Notes: a model not told the origin generated them from the sequence alone. A stretch of 64,000 nucleotides of DNA from a virus (IMGVR_UViG_3300028410_000746), one strand, 5' to 3'; positions 10,499 to 62,079 are shown, counted from the first letter of the stretch. Translations and numbers: made by a program.

Positions 10499-10640
10499 TC
10501 TGTGCCAAGAAGTCACAGGGTAGGGAACACGTAAGTATTCGGTTTTCAAAGACTTTCAGGGTTCAGTGTCAAAGAGCGTCACCCTTGGGCGACCTCTCCG
10601 ACGTCCTTATGGTAACCACACCTAAGAGGGCCTGTCAAGC
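10499..10640 (-). promoter_or_regulatory. CRISPR leader with sigma70 promoter (leader copy 1)
   Basis: TTGACA-N18-TACCAT; highly similar to 39984-40125 and 44025-44165. Confidence 0.8.
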
Positions 10641-11171
10641 GCCGCGCAACGGTCGAAACGTCAAGTTGATGCGAGGCTCAGAGACACGGGCACGCTTGGG
10701 GAGGCTGTGCTCCCACTCGCGCTGAGTCCCCGCAGGCATGACGAGAAGGCTGCCGTCCGTGAGCGCGAAGGAGAGCTTCTCCTTGTGGTCCACCTTGCGG
10801 CGCATCTTGAAGTCTCGGGCAGCTCCAAACGACAGGGAGGCGATCACCGGGTCATCCCCGAACAGCGGCTCATCGTCCGCGTGCCAGCCAATGCGGTCCG
10901 AGCCGTCCCGGTAGAGGTTGGCCAGCATCGTGGGGAGCTTGCAACCCACATGAGCCTCGACCTTCTCCTGGAGCGACTTGAGGAGAGCAGAAGGAAGCTC
11001 CCGAGCCCCCCACTGTAGGTTGGAGTACGTGTAAGAGACCGGACCGTACCACGCAGTCAAGCGAGGCTGTGGGTGCTCTTTGCCGTAGACCACAATCATG
11101 CGCTGTTCAAAGGCGAGCAGACTGCGCAGCTCCTCGAAATCCATCTCCACGAACTGCTCTATCAATTCCAT
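10635..11171 (-). CDS. alkB: 2OG-Fe(II) dioxygenase, AlkB (ALKBH2/3-like) family
   Basis: QPRLTAWYG, LANLYRDGSDRIGWHADDE, IASLSFG, WEHSLPK, RINLTFR. Confidence 0.92.
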   Translation of the reverse strand: MELIEQFVEMDFEELRSLLAFEQRMIVVYGKEHPQPRLTAWYGPVSYTYSNLQWGARELPSALLKSLQEKVEAHVGCKLPTMLANLYRDGSDRIGWHADDEPLFGDDPVIASLSFGAARDFKMRRKVDHKEKLSFALTDGSLLVMPAGTQREWEHSLPKRARVSEPRINLTFRPLRGA

Positions 11172-11227
11172 CACGGTGCTCCAGGGCAAAGGGTGATGAG
11201 CTACCCTAGCCCGAAGAGAGCGTAAAG

Positions 11228-11602
11228 TCAACCGGCAGACAGCACCAAGCGCCAGATCGTCCACGCACACAGGAGGTGGTACGTGTTGTCGACGATGATC
11301 ACGGACCACGGCCCCATGTTGTCACGGAACCCCGTCTGACCTGCCTTACCCATCCAGGCGGCGGCGAGACGGTAGCGGTCGACCGGGTAGTGCGTGGCCC
11401 AAATGGCAGCGTAGGCCCACCACGGCCAGACATCCCCCATGACCCAGGTGAAGCAGACAAACATCAACGTATAGAGCGTCACATGCACCAGACACGCTGC
11501 CGTGCCCTCCCAGGTACGTGCGCTCTTGTTCTGCGCCATCCAGTCGTTCTGGTAGACGTAATCACCCACGAGGTGAACCAGAATAAGAGTACCCATATCC
11601 AT
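11228..11602 (-). CDS. DUF3307-like membrane protein
   Basis: HLVGDYVYQNDWMAQNK..H..THYPVD..DNTYH. Confidence 0.75.
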   Translation of the reverse strand: MDMGTLILVHLVGDYVYQNDWMAQNKSARTWEGTAACLVHVTLYTLMFVCFTWVMGDVWPWWAYAAIWATHYPVDRYRLAAAWMGKAGQTGFRDNMGPWSVIIVDNTYHLLCAWTIWRLVLSAG

Positions 11603-14823: not shown

Positions 14824-15594
14824 TCAGCGGTAGAGCTTGAGCTTCCCGGTGATAGGGTCAAGGTCCTCCGCGTACTCCGGACCTATCGCCAAGGCCGTCG
14901 TCTGCGCGCCCGCAAAGATCGTCCGACCCTCATCGACCACGAGAGCGGTACGCAGGCCTGCCTCCTGTGCGGCAGCGTACAGCGCGAGCATCTCCGACTC
15001 GCTGTCAACTCCCAACACGATCTTGACGTGAGAGCCCTTGCTCCACGCGAGGTCGAGCGGTCTCATCTTCAGCGTCAGGTCTCCAGGTCCCGATGTGAGG
15101 GCCTCGCCCATGAACGCCTTGAGGCTGGCATGAGCAGCCTGCGCCGCTGCCTTGCCTGCGGGCATCTTGAGGTCGGTCCGTAGAATGATCACTTGCTTGG
15201 GCTCTCTCATCTCCATCACCTTGGTCTGTAGGGGGTTGAGCTGTAGGAGGTAGCGTTCTGCCTCCCGCGTATGCGTACACACGGTGGCTACGATCTTGGC
15301 CGGACGAAGCAGCGAAGCGTAAGCCATACCGTCAGCCGGATCAGTCGTCTCCTCCCAGGAGGACTCCAACTCCACCGCGTAGACGCCCGAGCCCACCCAG
15401 ACACCACTCTCCGTCAAGAGCACCGCCCCGCCTGAGCGAATATAGAAGGACAGCACATCATAGAGAGTCTTCCAGACGGTCCCCTCCACGTCCTTGTAGA
15501 TCGAGACGTCTCTCCACTTCTCGTAGGTCTGGAGGTTCCCGACCGTGTATGCGCGCGTGCCGGGGAGAGTCGGCACATCTTTGGACCAGCTCAT
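14824..15594 (-). CDS. pth2: Peptidyl-tRNA hydrolase Pth2 with an N-terminal extension (or an internal start)
   Basis: KQVIILRTDLKMPAGKAAAQAAHAS..VKIVL..VVDEGRT..TALAIGP..LDPITGKLKL. Confidence 0.88.
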   Translation of the reverse strand: MSWSKDVPTLPGTRAYTVGNLQTYEKWRDVSIYKDVEGTVWKTLYDVLSFYIRSGGAVLLTESGVWVGSGVYAVELESSWEETTDPADGMAYASLLRPAKIVATVCTHTREAERYLLQLNPLQTKVMEMREPKQVIILRTDLKMPAGKAAAQAAHASLKAFMGEALTSGPGDLTLKMRPLDLAWSKGSHVKIVLGVDSESEMLALYAAAQEAGLRTALVVDEGRTIFAGAQTTALAIGPEYAEDLDPITGKLKLYR

Positions 15595-16301
15595 GATTCA
15601 CCCTTCGTCGACGCCCAGACGCCCCGACCCACCTTGGAGGCCTCACCCTCTTTCTCCAGCTCTCGGAGGATTCGACTCACGGAGCTGGAGACGTTCTTGT
15701 AGAGGGTGGCGTAGTGGGGTGCCTCCTTGGCCAGCTTCAAGGGCTTGACCTCTCCAGCCTCCAGGCTCGCGCGCACCCACGCACGCGTGAGCTTGTAGTG
15801 GGTGCAGTACGTATGGGCCCCGCTTGGATAACCCGCGAGCTGGTCACGGTTCTGCTCACACAACAAGAGCTTGTGCCGGTTGCGATGCTTCTTGGCATCG
15901 TCCAGACGCTCCGCTGCAACATGCTCCACGAAGTCCTTCGTCTCCGTGTCAAAGCTCATGAGGCCGTGCTTACTCCAGCGTCCGCCCTTGAACGCCGCCA
16001 CCCACTTGGCCACGGTCGCTTCTCGCGGGGTAGCCATCGTGAACCCCCACACCTCATCGGCCACGTGGTAGATGTCGAGCTTCCACACCTGGCGTCTAAG
16101 CGTCTTATCTGACCCACGCTTCATCTCGATCGCCACCACGTACTCGGGAGCGTCACAGGGCCCCGTATGCCCCACGTGGTCCACGAAGATTGATTTGCCA
16201 AACATCGCAACCTCCCCGTGCACGCATAACCCGCGCGCACGCAGGTGCGCGACCACGTACGGGGACAGCTCCAGCTCTGTTTTGGGACTCTCTTTACTCA
16301 T
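15591..16301 (-). CDS. PD-(D/E)xK-like nuclease-fold protein
   Basis: ELEL..EV..VDHV..VAIEMK motif order. Confidence 0.5.
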   Translation of the reverse strand: MSKESPKTELELSPYVVAHLRARGLCVHGEVAMFGKSIFVDHVGHTGPCDAPEYVVAIEMKRGSDKTLRRQVWKLDIYHVADEVWGFTMATPREATVAKWVAAFKGGRWSKHGLMSFDTETKDFVEHVAAERLDDAKKHRNRHKLLLCEQNRDQLAGYPSGAHTYCTHYKLTRAWVRASLEAGEVKPLKLAKEAPHYATLYKNVSSSVSRILRELEKEGEASKVGRGVWASTKGES

Positions 16302-19741: not shown

Positions 19742-19814
19742 TAGTCACGATGGGACTCGAACCCATACACGGGGATTTAGAATCCCCTGCTCTAACCCGT
19801 TGAGCTACACGACT
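19742..19814 (-). tRNA. tRNA-Sup(CUA), amber suppressor, copy 1
   Basis: Cloverleaf; anticodon arm GGGGA-TT CTA AA-TCCCC; A73; no encoded CCA. Confidence 0.9.
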
Positions 19815-22459: not shown

Positions 22460-22590
22460 CTGTACGAACAAGGGACTGGAAACGGAAGTTTAGCGTGCTA
22501 CCCATACACTACCCCCCGAAGGGGGCCGGGACTCGAACCCGGTCTGCCTCATTAACAGTGAGATAACCGTTTGCCATTCAGATCGTACAG
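22460..22590 (-). ncRNA. Circularly permuted tRNA-Asn(GUU)-like domain (core 22494-22563) in a conserved scaffold
   Basis: Order: anticodon arm (loop CT GTT AA), T arm, CCCCC-TTCG-GGGGG, D arm. Flanks pair. Confidence 0.75.
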
Positions 22591-22610
22591 AACATCACCC
22601 GTAAGGGTTG

Positions 22611-22740
22611 TGCGGTCAAGAGGTTAGAAGTGCTTATATATCAGATGCCTCTACCAGTTGGGCTACGTCGCTATAGGCGCGACGGCGGGGCTCGAACCCG
22701 CAACACTCCGATTCCGTTAAAGCTCTTCAAGCAGACCGCA
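22611..22740 (-). ncRNA. Circularly permuted tRNA-like domain opened in the anticodon loop (core 22641-22713)
   Basis: AA-TCGGA, variable loop, T arm, CGTCGC-GCCTATA-GCGACG, D arm, TCTGA. Flanks pair. Confidence 0.7.
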
Positions 22741-22742
22741 CA

Positions 22743-22882
22743 TACGGACCGAGGGAGTCGAACCCTCGCGTTTAGACCTCGCCAGGAGTTTTTTAGTACC
22801 TTGGGGTCGCCCGTATCTCGTCTTTCCGAGATGTCACCGCAAGAATTTTGGTCTGAGTACCTACCAACCTTGCGGAATCCGT
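22743..22882 (-). ncRNA. tRNA-like RNA with a large structured insert
   Basis: Acceptor ACGGATT/GGTCCGT plus A73; T arm GAGGG-TTCGACT-CCCTC; internal hairpins. Confidence 0.45.
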
Positions 22883-22899
22883 AGGTACCCCCCAGCGTC

Positions 22900-23717
22900 T
22901 GGTCTTGCTGGACCTCTCCAGGAGGTGCGAGGAACTCCCTGAGCATCCCGTCTCCCAACAACAATGGCAAGAGGGTTCCTCATCCTGGAGGGTGGTGTTT
23001 GAAGCTGGGTCAAGTTTGCGTAGCCAGGGTGCAAGCCACGTCTCTCAACGGGGCAAGTTTTGGATAACCCGAGCTACATCAGACCCAGCTTCAAGCTGGT
23101 CCGGCCGGAGCCGGTAGAAAGCTTCCCGGTCAAGGTAGCGTAGGAGGGTATCCCCCAGCCCAACCCAGACCCACTCTCGCAGGTAGGGCTCGACATGGGG
23201 GTTTCCAGTAACCCTGCCTACATCAGACCGGAAAGAGGTGTCGCAGATGCGGTGTGGTCGCGAAGGGAACGGAAGGGAAGGGACCATCCCCATGTGCGTG
23301 GGGAATCGATCGAGTTACCATCTCTCCCACCCGCTAGAAGCCCCCTCGGTGAAGCCCGAGACCTCCCTCCGGGTATGAACCGGAGGGTGTGCTGATTACA
23401 CCAGAGGCACCGTGTCACCTCAAGGGTAACTTCGGCAGGACCTCTCCACGCACTTTGCAGTGCCTACCTTTGCTGATATCCGCGACAGGTAGTAATCCAG
23501 TGCTCCGTTCTGGACTTGCACCAGACCTTCCCGCAGACCTCTCCACCAAAGAAGAGAGATGAGGGGCGTGCCTCTAAAGGTACTCGGCGCTTCATCGGAG
23601 GATCTAAAGACCCGTCCATTTCCGTCGCCTCGTACGCCAACACTTTCGGAACAGAACGTTCGATCAAGAGAGCGACGAGGAAGATTTTTGCGGTAATCCT
23701 CGTCAGCAGATCGAACG
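22900..23717 (-). ncRNA. Highly structured non-coding region in the tRNA operon (several scaffold copies)
   Basis: No credible ORF; many nested stems and repeated motifs. Confidence 0.55.
23280..23308 (-). repeat. Degenerate solitary type I-E-like repeat
   Basis: CGATTCCCCACGCACATGGGGATGGTCCC. Confidence 0.45.
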
Positions 23718-23720
23718 TAG

Positions 23721-23792
23721 TAGGGTCGGTGGGGATTGAACCCACGACCATCTCGGTGTAAACGAGGCGCTCTCCCACTGAGCTACGACCCT
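23721..23792 (-). tRNA. tRNA-Val(UAC)
   Basis: Cloverleaf, loop TT TAC AC, A73. Confidence 0.92.
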
Positions 23793-23877
23793 AAGAGTCT
23801 TTCGAGCAAAGAATGTGCAGTTGCCGGGGGGTATCGTTTGGGGATAACCCAGCGTTCGCGGGCAGCTCGGAAGACAG

Positions 23878-42789: not shown

Positions 42790-42863
42790 TGCGCCGAGTG
42801 GGGCTCGAACCCACAACACGGGGATTTAGAATCCCCTGCTCTAACCCGTTGAGCTATCGGCGC
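42790..42863 (-). tRNA. tRNA-Sup(CUA), amber suppressor, copy 2
   Basis: Perfect 7-bp acceptor GCGCCGA/TCGGCGC; same D and anticodon arms as copy 1; A73. Confidence 0.92.
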
Positions 42864-48314: not shown

Positions 48315-48578
48315 TCAGAGCCCCTTGGTGTCACCGTCTTGCGGCATCTCGGACAAGAGAAGGTACTCCTCGCCCACCCTCATCTCCTCGCCGATCTCGT
48401 AGACCTTGGCAGGCTCTCCGTCCTGCTCGACCCGTCGTGAGTGTGCTCCCAGGAGCGCCTTCGCCATCCGGATCTTGAATCGTCGCAGCGCCTGATCTTC
48501 ATCGTGTGTCATCGTATGCCTCATGGTGTTCGTAGGAATCGTAGACCTACGATAGCCGGGCACACGAAAGAGCGTCAA
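48315..48578 (-). CDS. Hypothetical protein
   Basis: Tiles operon; start uncertain. Confidence 0.4.
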   Translation of the reverse strand: MTLFRVPGYRRSTIPTNTMRHTMTHDEDQALRRFKIRMAKALLGAHSRRVEQDGEPAKVYEIGEEMRVGEEYLLLSEMPQDGDTKGL

Positions 48579-49147
48579 GGGTCGGTGATGTGGCTTTCGC
48601 GGTAAAAGGCCAACTCATTGATCGTACTACGAAGGTCTCCCAAAACCCTGTGATCTGCGGAGACCTCGCGGGGCAGCATCTCGTGGCCCCAGACCTCGAA
48701 TGCGCCGCGAAAGCTGGACACGTCAATGTTCCGGTAGTGGAACAGGGCGTTGAAGTCGGGCATCTGCGTCTGGACGAACTCACGGTCGAAGTGCACGGAG
48801 GACCCGCACATGGGCAAGGTGCCGTAGCGACCGTTCTTGCCCTCGCGCGTGATCTCTTCCGGGAGCATGATCGGGCGGTAGTAGGCGAGCATCTCCTGCT
48901 CCACCTCCGCGAGCGTCTTGGTAGCCTCCAGGGACTCCTGAGTCAGACCGCTCTCGCCGTGTACGCGTACGCACCACGGATCCATCGCATCCAGAACCTC
49001 TTGCGAGTGGTGGACCACCCAGGCGTGGGCATCCAGCTCGACGAGGTTCGCATCGGTGATGATCACGCCCACCTCCAGGATGGGGATCTCGGCGCATGGG
49101 CGGTTCGTGGGAAGGTCTCCCGTCTCCAGGTCAAGAAAAACAAACAT
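48575..49147 (-). CDS. orn: Oligoribonuclease (DEDDh)
   Basis: FLDLETG..ILEVGVIITD..MDPWC..HGESGL..CGSSVHFDREF..HYRNIDVSS..HRVLGDL. Confidence 0.92.
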   Translation of the reverse strand: MFVFLDLETGDLPTNRPCAEIPILEVGVIITDANLVELDAHAWVVHHSQEVLDAMDPWCVRVHGESGLTQESLEATKTLAEVEQEMLAYYRPIMLPEEITREGKNGRYGTLPMCGSSVHFDREFVQTQMPDFNALFHYRNIDVSSFRGAFEVWGHEMLPREVSADHRVLGDLRSTINELAFYRESHITDP

Positions 49148-49779
49148 CACTCCTCCTCCATAAGCTGTGAAAACTCCGCCAAAGACTTGAGCGCCTCCCA
49201 ACGCTTCCGCTCTCGCAGGGACCCGTAAAGGCCCTGGAGCTGCATGAAGGTCGGAGTGAGCTGGTCGTTCACCAGGACGGTCTCAAAGTCGCCCCAGTCC
49301 TCGTACATCTCTCCAACAGCAGACCCAAGCCTCTTTCGGGCATCGGCTTCTCCGCGTCCATCCGACTTCAACCGGTGCACCAGAGCGTCCACTGACGGTG
49401 GGAGAAGAAGCACTGCGAAGATCTCGACCTCATCGTCCTCCGCGAAGTGCTCCCGGAGCTGCTCCAGGCCATGCCTCTCGATCACGACGAGGACGTTCTT
49501 GCCGCGCCCAAAGGGATCTCGAAACGCATCCTCACGGTAACCGTAGTAGTGATCATGGTACTTGACGTGCTCGATGTACTCCCCCCGCTCGATCTCCTCC
49601 AGAACCTGCTCCCGGCCCCTGAAGTCGTAGTCGACCCCCTGCACCTCTACAGGACGTGGAGGCCGTGTGGTGACCGATACGGCGACCTGAGCCGTATCCT
49701 CGCACGAGGCCGCCAACAGCCGGCATAGGGTGGTCTTTCCGACCCCTGAGGGGCCTACCAGAGCTAAGATGGTATTCAT
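49147..49779 (-). CDS. gmk: Guanylate kinase
   Basis: GPSGVGKTT, SVTTRPPRPVEVQGVDYDF, HYYG. Confidence 0.92.
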   Translation of the reverse strand: MNTILALVGPSGVGKTTLCRLLAASCEDTAQVAVSVTTRPPRPVEVQGVDYDFRGREQVLEEIERGEYIEHVKYHDHYYGYREDAFRDPFGRGKNVLVVIERHGLEQLREHFAEDDEVEIFAVLLLPPSVDALVHRLKSDGRGEADARKRLGSAVGEMYEDWGDFETVLVNDQLTPTFMQLQGLYGSLRERKRWEALKSLAEFSQLMEEE

Positions 49780-58322: not shown

Positions 58323-58633
58323 TGCGCAAACCATGGGTGTGCCGTGACTCCCCGACCGCCGCAGTCGTCACATGGAGGATGAGAATAGAGAACCCCCTCG
58401 CCGCCACACGCGCCACACTCAAGGTCGTAGAGGACCCCTTGGTAGTCACACCTCGCGCAGCCGTCCGGATCTTCCCCGTCTCCTTCCCCTCCGCAGGCCG
58501 GACACGGAATCTCTTCCAGGAAGCCATCCCCCCGACAGACCTCGCACTCGGTCTCCAGGAGGAGATCCTTTCGGACCCCCTCCATCATACAGACCTCGCA
58601 CTCGACGAGCATTGTGGGAGGCATGGGACTCAT
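58319..58633 (-). CDS. DnaJ-type CxxCxGxG Zn-finger protein
   Basis: Multiple CxxCxGxG repeats. Confidence 0.7.
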   Translation of the reverse strand: MSPMPPTMLVECEVCMMEGVRKDLLLETECEVCRGDGFLEEIPCPACGGEGDGEDPDGCARCDYQGVLYDLECGACGGEGVLYSHPPCDDCGGRGVTAHPWFAQ

Positions 58634-61600
58634 ACAGACGGCTCCTGGACGAAGGGCTCGGTCACCGGGAGAGCCTTGGTCCAGTCACGAAGAACGTCTC
58701 GGAACACCAGCGGCGGAATCTGCTCCACGCGGTCCACCGGGTAGAACGTCATTTCGCTGAGCACCAGGGCGTCCACGTCACGCAGGTCCTTGGTACACTG
58801 CGAGGGCATGATGACCTCACGGATGCCCGCGCGATGCGCGGCGATGACCTTCTCCTTGATGCCGCCGACCGGGAGCACCTGACCCGTGAGCGTAATCTCA
58901 CCGGTCATGGCCACCTCTCGGCGCAGCTTGAGCCCCGCGAAGCGAGAGAGCAAGGCGCTGAACATCGTGATGCCTGCGGAGGGACCATCCTTGGGGATGG
59001 CGCCAGCCGGCACGTGGATGTGAAGGTCGTGCGACTTGATCATGTTGGTGTCTACTCCATACAGATCGCCATGCGCACGCAGGTAGCTCAGGGCAGCCCG
59101 GACAGACTCCTTCATGACGTCTCCGAGCTGGCCCGTCAGCGTCACCTCACCCTTACCCCCTTTCATCGCCTGCACCTCAATGAAGAGGATGTCTCCACCT
59201 ACCGCCGTCCAGGCCAAGCCCGTTGCCACGCCCTCCTGATCCTCACGCTGCGACACCTCCGAGATGTACCGAACGGGACCCAGCGCCTTCTCGACCCGCC
59301 CCATGTCCAGGGGGAACACCGCACCGAGACGCTCAGCCTCCGGAAGCTTGACGACATCCACAGCGATAGAGCGGCACAGGTCTCCCAGCCTACGGTTCAG
59401 GCTACGGACGCCCGCCTCACGGGTGTACTTGTCCACCACGTGGTGGACCACCCCATCCGCGACCTCGATCTGGTCGGGCCCCAGACCGTGGGCGGCTACC
59501 TGCTTGGGGAAGAGATAGCGAGTCGCGATCTCATTCTTCTCGAACATCGTGTAGCTGGGGACCTCCAGGATCTCCATACGGTCACGCAGCGGAGCCGAGA
59601 TCGTATCCAACCGGTTGGCCGTGGCGATGAAGAGGACCTTGGACAGGTCAAGGTCTATCTCCAGGTAGTGGTCGTTGAACGTCGAGTTCTGAGCCGGATC
59701 AAGAACCTCCAGGAACGCGGCGGCGGGGTCGCCTCGGAAGTCCGAGCCCACCTTGTCGATCTCGTCCAGGAGGATGACCGGGTTCATCGTGCCGGCCTTC
59801 TGAAGCGCTCGAACGATGCGGCCCGGCATGGCGCCCACATAGGTACGACGGTGACCACGGATCTCGGACTCGTCGTGCATACCTCCAAGGGAGATGCGCG
59901 CGAACTTGCGGCCCATCGTCCGGGCAATGGACTTGGCGATGGACGTGTTATGCGTCACAATCACGTCATCAGTGATGTAAAGAGAATCAGGAGCAGAGAC
60001 CTTGATGCACTGAGTCTCCTTGACACCTACCGCTACGATATCAGAGATGAACCTCTTGGGAGCGTACTTACTCTTGGAGACCCACCGCTGAGCTTTGGCG
60101 TCACACCAGAAGGGACACTGACCCGCCGACATTGAGACCGTCACGTTGTACGCCAGACGACCCGAACGCCTCTCCCCATCAACCGTATATGACGGCTTTT
60201 TCATCGTCACCCGTGTCACCCCCCCAAGCGACCGGACCAACCACTGCACGTCATCACACAATCGCGTCGACGTCGTACAAAAAGAAACCCTACAACCCGT
60301 CGCGTCTACAGTACCGCCAGTGTCCATCAAGCCCTGCAAAAGAGCGAGCCTCTGCTCTACCGAGCCGTAAAGGTACACATAAGGTACATGCTTTTCGTAC
60401 GAGTAGAGCCCCGTAAGTTCCAGAGCATCCAGCTCCACCTGCAACGCGTCCCGTACAGACCCCTTTCGCCCTGCGGTCAAACGATAGTCACAGGTCTCCG
60501 ACGCTTGCTTGCGCATCCGAACCTCCCCCGGCAAGGCGGCAGCTACGCGTGCGCAAATATCACCCTCTGGGTTTGAAAAACCAACGGAAGCTCCCGTAAG
60601 GCCTCCATCTCCCAAGAGCGCCCCCAAGAGGTACGGGTCAAGGGGTACGGACTTTTCCGCAAACTCCAAGGGCTGGGTCAGAGGGATAGAATGGTTGCGG
60701 CGAGCGTCCGAGCCGTACCGAAGCGTCTCTCGGATTTGCTCCAGAGACTTCACCGACCCCTCACGGGAAGCCTTCCGATCGAGGTCGGTATGCGTGTACC
60801 ACAAGTGCTCGTCGCAACACTCTGTTGATGAGCCGTCTTGAAACTCCACACGATACACCGGCCGCGTGCCTTGAGGGAACGCGCCCTCCACGTGATGAAC
60901 GCCCCCGTCCGCACCCATGACCGCATCACCTACCGCAAGCGTACCCATCGCAACCCAACCCTTCGGGGTCAACACCCGCGCATCCAAAGGCTGCGCCTTG
61001 CCCACACCGGGAGGGCCCACGAAGCACAGGATCGGGCCGTTCATGTCCTGCTTGAGCGCCTGAACAGCCAGATGCTCGACCACCCTTCGCTTCACCTTCT
61101 CCAGGCCGTAGTGGTCCGCGTCGAGCACATCCTCCGCGCGGACGACATCCAGGTTGTCCTCGCTCTCGACGCCCCACGGCACATCGAGCATCTGCTGGAT
61201 GTAGTTGAGCGTCACCGAATACTCGGAGCTGGCCGGCTGCATCGCGTCGAGTCGACGATGCTGCTTCAGGACCGCAGCCTCCACCTCCTCAGGCATGTCT
61301 GCCTCCTGAATACGCTCAAGCAGCTCCTCCGTCTCGGAGATGTCCTCACCGAGCTGGTCCTTGATGACCTTGAGCTGCTGGCGAAGGATGTACTCACGCT
61401 GAATAGACTTGCTGCGCTCCTGGAGCGACTGGTTGATCTCACCCGCCAGCTCCTGGCGCGCGATACGCTCCCCCAGGATGCGCAGACACCGAGACGCGCG
61501 CTCCGTGATGTTCGGCTCCAGGTAGAGAGCCAACAGGTCCTCATCCTCGAAGCGGGGCGCGAGCATGTCTGTAAGGTCTGAGAGGGAGCCCACAGCACGC

Positions 61601-62079
61601 ACGCGCTCGAACTCCTGCTCGGGAGCGTCCGGATCGTCTCCCAGGACCTGAAGCGTCTTCTCCTGAAGCGCCTCGAACAGCGCTTCATTGTACTCCGCCT
61701 CCTTGTCGAACTCCGGTCCAATGACCTCGAAGTGACCCATCAACGGCGCGGAGGCATCCTCCGGAATCTCAAGATCCAGGAGCCTCAGCCTCACCTCCCC
61801 GGAAGAAATGACCGTATAGTCGTTCGCGTTCGGGTTCGGGATGATCTTGATGCAGGACACCAGGGTCGCGATCTCGTGGACCTCATCCATCGAGGACAGC
61901 GTGAGCACGTCCGGAGACTTCTGAAGCACGACCGCGATCTTGAAAGGCGCCGGCGAGTCTGCACCCTCAATGACCGCCAGGGAGCGTGCTCGACCGACCC
62001 GAACAGGGATCATCTGTAGCGGGAAAAGAGGGTTCTCGCGCATGGCGATCACGGGAAGGTACAGGGTGTCAGCGCTCAT
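58630..62079 (-). CDS. lon: ATP-dependent Lon protease containing an intein
   Basis: LON N-domain, GPPGVGK|T, LLDEIDK, DGPSAG catalytic Ser, IGGIKEK-type VGGIKEK. Confidence 0.97.
59947..60996 (-). mobile_element. Class-3 intein (350 aa) with a LAGLIDADG domain in the Lon P-loop
   Basis: Starts AQPLD, ends VTHN before Thr+1; WCT signature (HLW, TQC, VTHN). Confidence 0.92.

Follow-up and report, generated by a model that had tools for sequence, protein, structure and literature searches.

A probable YrlA-type Y RNA lacking a V hairpin in a putative tRNA-punctuated operon of a 373-kb freshwater phage

YrlA RNAs, a class of Y RNAs known in bacteria and phages since 2014, are bound by Ro60/Rsr and modified by TruB and Dus. 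They combine a Ro60-site motif near the 5' end with a series of T, closed acceptor-like (AS) and D stem-loops that follow one another in this sequence, with covariation at the 15:48 Levitt pair and with a Ro60 gene within 4 kb on the same strand (Chen et al. 2014; PMC4201824). The structure solved in 2018 (Wang et al.; bioRxiv 10.1101/312249) displays a closed acceptor loop and no anticodon loop, and an anticodon stem extending into the Ro60 module belongs to the described architecture (10.1101/312249, PMC4201824). Here we describe a further example of this class, of the subtype without a variable-arm ('V') hairpin, in a 64,000-nucleotide (nt) stretch of viral DNA (IMGVR_UViG_3300028410_000746; the whole stretch is called the window). 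The element comprises 134 nt on the minus strand (22609-22742), as delimited by reading of the sequence and folding, and its structural identity as a YrlA-type RNA can be stated with high confidence. The source is a phage contig of 373,477 base pairs (bp), circularly permuted relative to the window, from lake-water metagenomes; the public sequencing runs that contain this DNA are exclusively lake-water DNA metagenomes, with no RNA run among them.

From the outside inward, the element consists of a lower helix (UGUGCGGUC/GACCGCACA, 9 bp), an upper helix (GAAGAGCUU/AAGCACUUC, 8 pairs and one A.A mismatch) and an anticodon-like stem (UCUGA/UCGGA, 5 pairs, one of them G-U), which leads into a body composed of T arm, capped hairpin and D arm (Table 1). 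All positions expected of a tRNA body are present, namely U8, A9, A14, A15:U48, G18, G19, A21 and A26, together with G53:C61, U54-U55-C56 and A58; the D stem requires one bulged A. Only the free acceptor end and the anticodon loop are missing from the tRNA plan. The T, AS and D stem-loops thus stand in the YrlA order with no complete tRNA flanking them, the tertiary nucleotides conserved in the family (UA linker, G18 G19, UUCRA T-loop, a variable loop that ends in a pyrimidine, 15:48) are retained, and the equivalent of the anticodon stem extends into a stem module with the anticodon loop gone. The full proposed fold was computed at -45.9 kcal/mol, 1.6 kcal/mol from the unconstrained minimum of -47.5, and the centroid fold includes, besides the lower helix and a portion of the upper one, the anticodon-like stem, T arm and capped hairpin. 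As modelled, the RNA is shown to fold as a class-I tRNA body whose acceptor is sealed by a 7-nt loop and whose anticodon stem continues into the outer helices.

An initial annotation, made from the sequence alone, had taken 22611-22740 for a second permuted tRNA-like domain opened in the anticodon loop. Much of its description holds: the segments it named (T arm, CGTCGC, GCCTATA, GCGACG, D arm, TCTGA and TCGGA) are all found on the minus strand, TCTGA and TCGGA pair as proposed, the two halves fold together in the model, and both reading and folding put outer helices in the position of an anticodon loop. The location was right and the span slightly too short, because the lower helix has 9 bp; likewise both flanking stems exist, the lower extending beyond TGCGGTC/GACCGCA and the upper carrying the mismatch. 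The element is not a novel permuted tRNA, its architecture being that of published YrlA (10.1101/312249, PMC4201824). Nor is the suggested CGG an anticodon: the triplet sits in UAACGGAA, an internal loop of 8 nt, and a loop of 7 nt with U33 is not available; the caution that the anticodon was unassignable was sound, since none can or should be assigned. A genuine circularly permuted tRNA gene of the type of Soma et al. (2007), with a transcript circularised at the flanks and opened at the acceptor into a tRNA that functions in decoding, as in Cyanidioschyzon merolae, has next to no probability. The succession of 3' half, linker and 5' half and the base-paired flanks would suit such a gene, and the authors of the YrlA structure noted the resemblance and left processing of this sort possible (10.1101/312249). 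However, in place of a bulge-helix-bulge (3-4-3) the flanks form an 8/5-nt asymmetric internal loop followed by a 9-position helix, and no joining of the flanks (UAUAU, UAACGGAA) produces an anticodon loop of 7 nt that has U33 and a purine at position 37. Moreover, the acceptor is 6 bp long and has A.G at 1:72, bacteria are not reported to have splicing endonucleases of the required type (10.1101/312249), and four neighbouring RNAs carry non-tRNA payloads on the same scaffold.

Family models place the element with YrlA. In a permissive scan (1.7 kb against 4227 families), the Rfam YrlA model (RF02553) matches 22621-22731 across the whole model (1-114) at 33.2 bits (E 6e-5), and the sister element next to it, which the initial annotation had called the Asn element, scores 27.1 bits. 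A covariance model, R1, was built from nine RNAs of Ro-encoding phages only, with compensatory change at 8 of its 13 pairs in the training set. Searched against the 64-kb window, R1 ranks the same two RNAs at the top, the sister at 53.2 bits (E 1e-12) and the element at 45.8 bits (E 1e-10), the latter matched over its full length with all 13 pairs standard. The Ro-adjacent copy of Mycobacterium phage Phabba, which lies outside the training set, reaches 43.4 bits, and tandem-tRNA junctions in the window reach 28.7 bits at most. The canonical tRNA model (RF00005) has no match at E <= 10 on 22609-22742, ARAGORN at default settings finds no tRNA on the element, no tRNA is called on either side of the core at default thresholds, and neither tmRNA nor mascRNA matches at the element. 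Two other candidates were considered and rejected: a D-armless 'tRNA-Ser' on the 5' half, called by ARAGORN at a relaxed threshold and not credible, and the tLRNA/skipping-rope tRNA mimics, whose topology differs.

A pattern scan of viral contigs for T-to-D cores returned at least 142 matches at no fewer than 120 loci. Complementarity within the T-to-D segment is bimodal among the 142 matches listed, with 0-4 pairs in 122 (tandem tRNAs) and 5-8 pairs in 20 (capped cores). This distribution bears on the proposal that the element is the functionless, decayed remnant of two tandem tRNA genes, the T arm of one followed by the D arm of the next. Its position in a tRNA cluster is what such a remnant would have, junctions of this kind are a known false-positive class of YrlA models (28-43 bits with R1), and YrlA itself is thought to derive from dimeric tRNAs (10.1101/312249). 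The element nonetheless forms 6 pairs between its T and D arms, as opposed to 0-4 in the tandem tRNAs; it has no default tRNA call on either side, its elbow and tertiary nucleotides and 15:48 pair are intact, its flanks form 5 + 8 + 9 helix pairs, and its sequence is 100% conserved in three independent assemblies. We regard the remnant as highly improbable.

Comparison with other phage RNAs defines the subtype. Most actinophage YrlA RNAs, as well as the sister, carry a V hairpin between the CGGUUAUC motif and the T arm; the element has none. As in the Salmonella-type consensus, its anticodon-like stem is immediately adjoined by the D arm and a variable loop of 5 nt. Eight of the cores collected are V-less: the element, Magritte A, Gilson 1, and those at loci L031, L047, L059, L121 and L135. 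The alignment of homologs proposed in the initial annotation yields a perfect 5-bp anticodon-like stem in 8/8 of these (40/40 cells paired) in eight different sequences; those of Magritte, Gilson and L047 are linked to Ro. The element shares a UUUAAC motif with Gilson 1 and L031, and this motif, formed by the loop at 22712-22719 together with the UU before it, corresponds to the conserved YUAY / GGUUAUC motif (motif as given in PMC4201824). For the 15:48 pair, at which the family description predicts Levitt covariation (PMC4201824), 22 of 37 cores have G:C, 10 have A:U, the element (A15:U48) among them, and 5 have other combinations. The AS hairpin differs from that of Phabba at 4 of 19 positions, and exact and degenerate probes of viral contigs with this hairpin retrieved nothing or Phabba only. 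Megablast of 8 kb of the window against a phage collection gave no match, and single-query synteny searches (upstream 409-residue open reading frame (ORF), downstream Pth2-like ORF, Magritte Ro) found no relatives in viral contigs.

The capped hairpin is also central to a reading in which RNase P opens its loop, the 3' end is trimmed and given CCA, and the halves stay paired, yielding a two-piece tRNA-like RNA open in principle to aminoacylation, as reported for the YrlA of Mycobacterium smegmatis. In vivo, RNase P cleaves that YrlA, whose AS has 7 bp, and CCA is added to it (PMC4201824); 7-8 pairs are present in the homologous AS of Phabba, and in the element the AS stacks on the 5-bp T stem and its loop starts G-C-C. 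The AS of the element, however, has only six Watson-Crick pairs, which disfavours the two-piece form; 1:72 would be A.G, and RNase P cleavage was ascribed to the 7-bp stem, with none for shorter stems (PMC4201824). Such processing is very unlikely here.

The outer helices of the element belong to a scaffold that recurs around it. Six Y-like RNAs with one plan lie at 22460-23875, in an RNA-only region of ~1.9 kb that also holds tRNAs (Table 1). Each has a lower helix ending in (G/A)(U/G)C, then UG(A/C), an upper helix, a GGUUAUC-like motif and a payload, followed by the upper-helix return, ...CUU and the lower-helix return. In the first ten positions of the six lower helices, 56 of 60 cells are paired and 7 of 10 positions show 2-4 pair types; the junction C:G, the UG after the lower helix and the CUU before the return strand are invariant. 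The combination GGUCUG...CUUGACC, in which the two motifs pair with each other, occurs three times in the window, always in this cluster and on this strand, against ~0.25 expected. GGUCUG(C) agrees at 5 of 7 positions with GGUCCGA, the contact of Xenopus Ro60 (cited in PMC4201824). Two of the Y-like RNAs without a tRNA-like domain (22999-23094 and 23122-23235) give weak matches to nematode stem-bulge RNA (sbRNA), a Y RNA homologue, and their GGUCUGAUGUAG...CUUGACC stems bear a striking likeness to those of metazoan Y RNAs and sbRNAs. The two short scaffolds alternate with tRNA-Trp and tRNA-Val, from which they are separated by 1-4 nt.

The sister, downstream of the element, is built on the same scaffold, as the initial annotation had recognised in noting a shared outer architecture. 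The different break point it saw between the two is not there: both RNAs end at the anticodon-stem equivalent, and the Asn-like hairpin of the sister is an additional V hairpin. The 18-nt spacer between them contains a small hairpin (ACCC-UUAC-GGGU, 22592-22608, minus strand) that may be a processing signal. On the other side, the upstream tRNA-like RNA carries a large structured insert in the position of the anticodon arm and is called by ARAGORN only at a relaxed threshold (22744-22828, with a 4-nt 'anticodon'); its 3' end, the discriminator, abuts the 5' end of the Y RNA, which it probably sets by tRNA-type processing. The 15 tRNAs of the window are all encoded on the minus strand, and a scan of the cluster for sigma-70 promoters and terminators gave nothing above shuffled sequences. 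The 1-4 nt spacers and the abutting discriminator suggest that the cluster is made as a single precursor, which tRNA-processing enzymes divide into its units; in M. smegmatis, YrlA and YrlB are cut from one precursor (PMC4201824).

Table 1. Segments of the Y RNA element, in its own 5'-to-3' order, followed by neighbouring features. Positions are those of the window unless prefixed with L.
Feature	Position	Strand	Remarks
Lower (outer) helix, 5' strand UGUGCGGUC	22734-22742	-	GGUC end, then UG, giving the GGUCUG motif
Outer internal loop, 5' side UGCUU	22729-22733	-	between lower and upper helices
Upper helix, 5' strand GAAGAGCUU	22720-22728	-	8 of 9 positions pair with 22627-22635
Inner internal loop UAACGGAA, 8 nt	22712-22719	-	with preceding UU, UUUAAC motif
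Anticodon-like stem strand UCGGA	22707-22711	-	equivalent of tRNA positions 39-43
Variable loop GUGUU, 5 nt	22702-22706	-	U48, partner of A15 (Levitt pair)
T arm GCGGG-UUCGAGC-CCCGC	22685-22701	-	Rfam and R1 matches
Capped acceptor-like (AS) hairpin CGUCGC-GCCUAUA-GCGACG	22666-22684	-	6 Watson-Crick pairs and a possible G.A
U8 A9	22665-22664	-	UA linker between AS hairpin and D arm
D arm GCCC-AACUGGUAG(A)-GGC	22663-22647	-	with A14, A15, G18, G19
A26	22646	-	
Anticodon-like stem strand UCUGA	22645-22641	-	equivalent of tRNA positions 27-31
Inner internal loop, 3' side UAUAU	22636-22640	-	
Upper helix, 3' strand AAGCACUUC	22627-22635	-	
Outer internal loop, 3' side UAACCUCUU	22618-22626	-	CUU end conserved in 6/6 scaffolds
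Lower helix, 3' strand GACCGCACA	22609-22617	-	part of CUUGACC
Upstream tRNA-like RNA	22743-22882	-	7-bp acceptor ACGGAUU/GGUCCGU, A73, T arm
Sister YrlA-type Y RNA with V hairpin (Asn-like loop)	22460-22590	-	18 nt downstream of the element
Y-like RNAs	22999-23094, 23122-23235	-	GGUCUGAUGUAG...CUUGACC stems, no tRNA-like domain
Short Y-like scaffolds	23656-23718, 23797-23875	-	no tRNA-like domain
PTH2, AlkB-like and RNase T-like genes	14824-15597, 10635-11321, 48575-49282 (-); L019:9406-9939, L019:22933-23450		apparent tRNA-maintenance genes

A Ro60 gene was sought in the 108,427 bp from window coordinate -17,941 to +90,485, 29% of the genome, an interval extended stepwise by exact-protein look-ups until structural genes were reached in both directions. 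No TROVE domain (Pfam) was found in the window ORFs or in the Pfam flags of the extended loci. A profile of eight phage Ro proteins, applied by six-frame hmmsearch, gave no match over the interval (best E 1.4, as against 7e-184 and 1e-212 for the controls), and hhalign reached a probability of 2.1% at best (98.5% and 99.9% for divergent controls).

Several points weigh against assignment to YrlA. Because this interval holds no TROVE-like frame, the element lacks the same-strand Ro60 gene within ~4 kb that accompanies YrlA in the published cases and the Ro-positive controls. The exact GNCGAAN0-1G motif, which lies at the 5' end, is related to GGUCCGA and is the presumed Ro60 contact of YrlA (PMC4201824), was not found in the element. 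The Rfam score falls below the gathering score of 69, and some tandem-tRNA junctions in other phages reach ~40-43 bits with R1. Finally, no sequence-variant orthologue was found, the region being 100% identical in the three assemblies, so that the upper and lower helices rest on paralogues only. As to the scores, none of the 13 YrlA-like RNAs from Ro-encoding or related phages reaches 69 either (25-52 bits; the Ro-encoding calibration phages were Phabba, Magritte, Sparky, QBert, Mareelih, Gilson, Pumpernickel and Rabbitrun), and a sub-threshold value is therefore normal for the phage branch. The R1 score is not decisive by itself, given what tandem-tRNA junctions reach elsewhere; a tandem-tRNA artefact is excluded by the capped hairpin, the lack of a cloverleaf call on either side and the long closing helices. 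Distance from Ro also has a precedent: of the two YrlA-like RNAs of Phabba, one lies directly upstream of Ro (L004:1235-1335) and the other ~37 kb away in a tRNA cluster (L001:4973-5073), so that Y RNAs distant from Ro are kept even by phages that encode it.

Other phages carry such cores with no Ro at all. Among the matches listed, TROVE is present in 7 of the 20 viral contigs with capped cores, and in 1 of 3 such records estimated to be complete; in those that have Ro, the gene starts within ~60-350 nt of the RNA. Two genomes estimated complete, IMGVR_UViG_3300029928_000001 (L031, 178 kb) and IMGVR_UViG_3300045988_168870 (L059, 145 kb, with terminal repeats), contain RNAs with 9-bp closing helices that score 58.5 and 51.8 bits with R1, and neither has a TROVE gene. 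The complete genome of Xanthomonas phage RTH11 (OQ790161.1, 312 kb) also lacks TROVE and carries a YrlA-type core of 44 bits (L002:5960-6115); this core is nested in a second tRNA-like frame, of which it replaces the anticodon arm, the outer frame having its own D and T arms and the acceptor GCGAAUG...CCUUCGC-G-CCA. No neighbouring protein that might serve as an alternative partner is common to RTH11 and this phage.

These genomes lend some weight to the idea that the element is a Ro-independent tRNA mimic that keeps the Y-RNA/tRNA-like fold and acts as a decoy or sponge for elbow-binding factors of the host or tRNA-targeting defence nucleases, as a titrator of tRNA-modifying or -processing enzymes, or as a scaffold for some other phage protein. 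The failure to find a Ro gene in the 108 kb around the cluster and the abundance of tRNA-maintenance genes nearby point the same way. On the other hand, the Ro search reached under a third of the genome and the host may supply Rsr, RTH11 and this phage have no alternative partner gene in common beside their RNAs, and the Ro-site-like GGUCUG...CUUGACC helix, kept in six scaffolds, is hard to explain without a protein that binds the stem. On balance we consider Ro-independent mimicry unlikely.

The reading that we favour, and hold to be probable as a whole, is that the element is a YrlA-type Y RNA of an RNA operon, with a Ro60-docking stem and a tRNA-like module that recruits an effector; toward its predicted dependence on Ro60, taken separately, we lean by a small measure. 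The Y RNA would be co-transcribed with the neighbouring tRNAs, and the enzymes that process the flanking tRNA or tRNA-like units would cut its ends as well. The lower helix and its internal loop form a putative docking site for the ring of Ro60/Rsr, encoded elsewhere in the phage genome or by the host, and the tRNA-like module may recruit either an effector that binds tRNA elbows or a 3'-5' exoribonuclease such as PNPase. During infection, the resulting complex could act on structured RNAs (tRNA, rRNA), remodelling them or controlling their quality. Models for such a mechanism are the Rsr-Y RNA-PNPase machine of Deinococcus and Salmonella (PMC4201824) and Thermus phage phiLo, for which a Ro60-Yrl complex with host PNPase was shown (PMC12135203).

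The surroundings of the cluster fit a role in RNA maintenance. Around the tRNA/Y RNA region lie genes for a PTH2 peptidyl-tRNA hydrolase, an AlkB-type 2-oxoglutarate (2OG)-Fe(II) oxygenase and three RNase T-like exonucleases, which suggest a tRNA-maintenance gene set, and the tRNAs include two amber suppressors, which have the anticodon CUA (19742-19814 and 42790-42863, minus strand). The long ORFs of the window are open under the standard code and mostly terminated by TGA (45/58). The window also codes for GyrB, many ORFans and a Lon protease of 1149 residues (58630-62079, minus strand), which is split by an intein-like insert with LAGLIDADG/homing-endonuclease signatures between its N-terminal domain and the AAA+ module.

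As one more example of an RNA class already known, the element changes nothing for permuted tRNAs. For YrlA-type Y RNAs, it extends the class to a 373-kb freshwater phage, in which they are embedded in a tRNA-punctuated operon beside five other Y-like scaffolds. Together with the three Ro-less phage genomes, it shows that such RNAs do not always lie beside a Ro60 gene, adjacency to which was the criterion by which the YrlA family was discovered, and it raises the question of whether phages use these RNAs with the Ro60 of the host or without Ro60. It is tempting to speculate, though we think it doubtful, that the six Y RNAs here and the YrlA-type RNAs of at least three Ro-less phages work without a phage Ro60, either as phage scaffolds that capture host Rsr/PNPase or as Ro-independent elbow decoys against tRNA-directed defences. 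If so, they would make up an 'orphan' class of phage Y RNAs, invisible to the published searches anchored on Ro. Parts of YrlA-type RNAs are wrongly labelled as tRNA genes by current annotation pipelines. Gene 117 of Microbacterium phage Magritte, 'tRNA-Arg(tct)' (L003:3955-4031), and gene 157 of Gordonia phage Mareelih, 'tRNA-Leu(gag)' (L014:6637-6725), overlap YrlA-like RNAs of 36.6 and 52.1 bits, respectively; both are probably mis-annotations in which the V hairpin was taken for an anticodon arm.

Set beside the described systems, the element resembles the permuted tRNA genes of C. merolae, other algae and Thermofilum pendens in that the 3' half comes first, the acceptor ends are linked and the flanks are paired. 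It differs from them in having neither a bulge-helix-bulge nor a recoverable anticodon loop, in its 6-bp acceptor, and in its setting, a bacterial virus without the splicing endonuclease. In common with metazoan Y RNAs, nematode sbRNAs and Deinococcus Yrn1, its lower helix ends in GGUC and is followed by a short internal loop and an upper helix, a motif like UUAUC is present, and the 3' strand bears CUUGAC; the resemblance is one of motifs only. Those RNAs lack a full tRNA-like body, and the Rfam Y_RNA family had no match in the scan of the element.

Among phages, RTH11 and the 178-kb and 145-kb genomes described above offer the same capped T-AS-D core and long closing helices with no Ro nearby, and the RNA of the 178-kb genome is of the same V-less subtype, with a CUUUAAC motif. 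Those three genomes are complete and Ro-less, whereas the Ro search here covered part of the genome, and the stems of their RNAs lack the GGUC...UUGAC motif. In the V-less copy of the Ro-positive Streptomyces phage Gilson (L016:1973-2086), UUUAAC, an anticodon-like stem of 4-5 bp, GUGU(C/U), T, AS, UA and D follow one another as in the element. Upstream of Ro, Gilson carries an RNA without the V hairpin and another with it, the same pair of types as in this phage; two YrlA-type RNAs stand in tandem in Gilson and Magritte (L003:3826-3923), as here, and those of Gilson, Magritte and Phabba lie in or beside tRNA clusters, as here. These three are actinophages of 60-190 kb, unlike the 373-kb source phage; they have Ro on the same strand, usually a few hundred to ~2,000 nt downstream, which is not the case here, and the outer stems of their RNAs bear GGGUCG(A/G)...CAUAUCC-type motifs unlike those of the element.

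From YrlA proper (RF02553; Salmonella Typhimurium and many Ro60-encoding bacteria; PDB 6CU1), the element departs in its GGUCUG...CUUGACC, which is closer to the two-strand site of metazoan and Deinococcus Y RNAs than to the exact GNCGAAN0-1G, and in its location inside the tRNA operon of a very large phage, with no adjacent Ro60 or rtcBA genes. The two have the following in common: T arm, closed acceptor-like stem-loop and D arm come in the same order, the variable loop is short and has no V hairpin, the tertiary nucleotides of tRNA are kept, the family model is matched over its full length, and the equivalent of the anticodon stem continues into a stem-loop-stem module.

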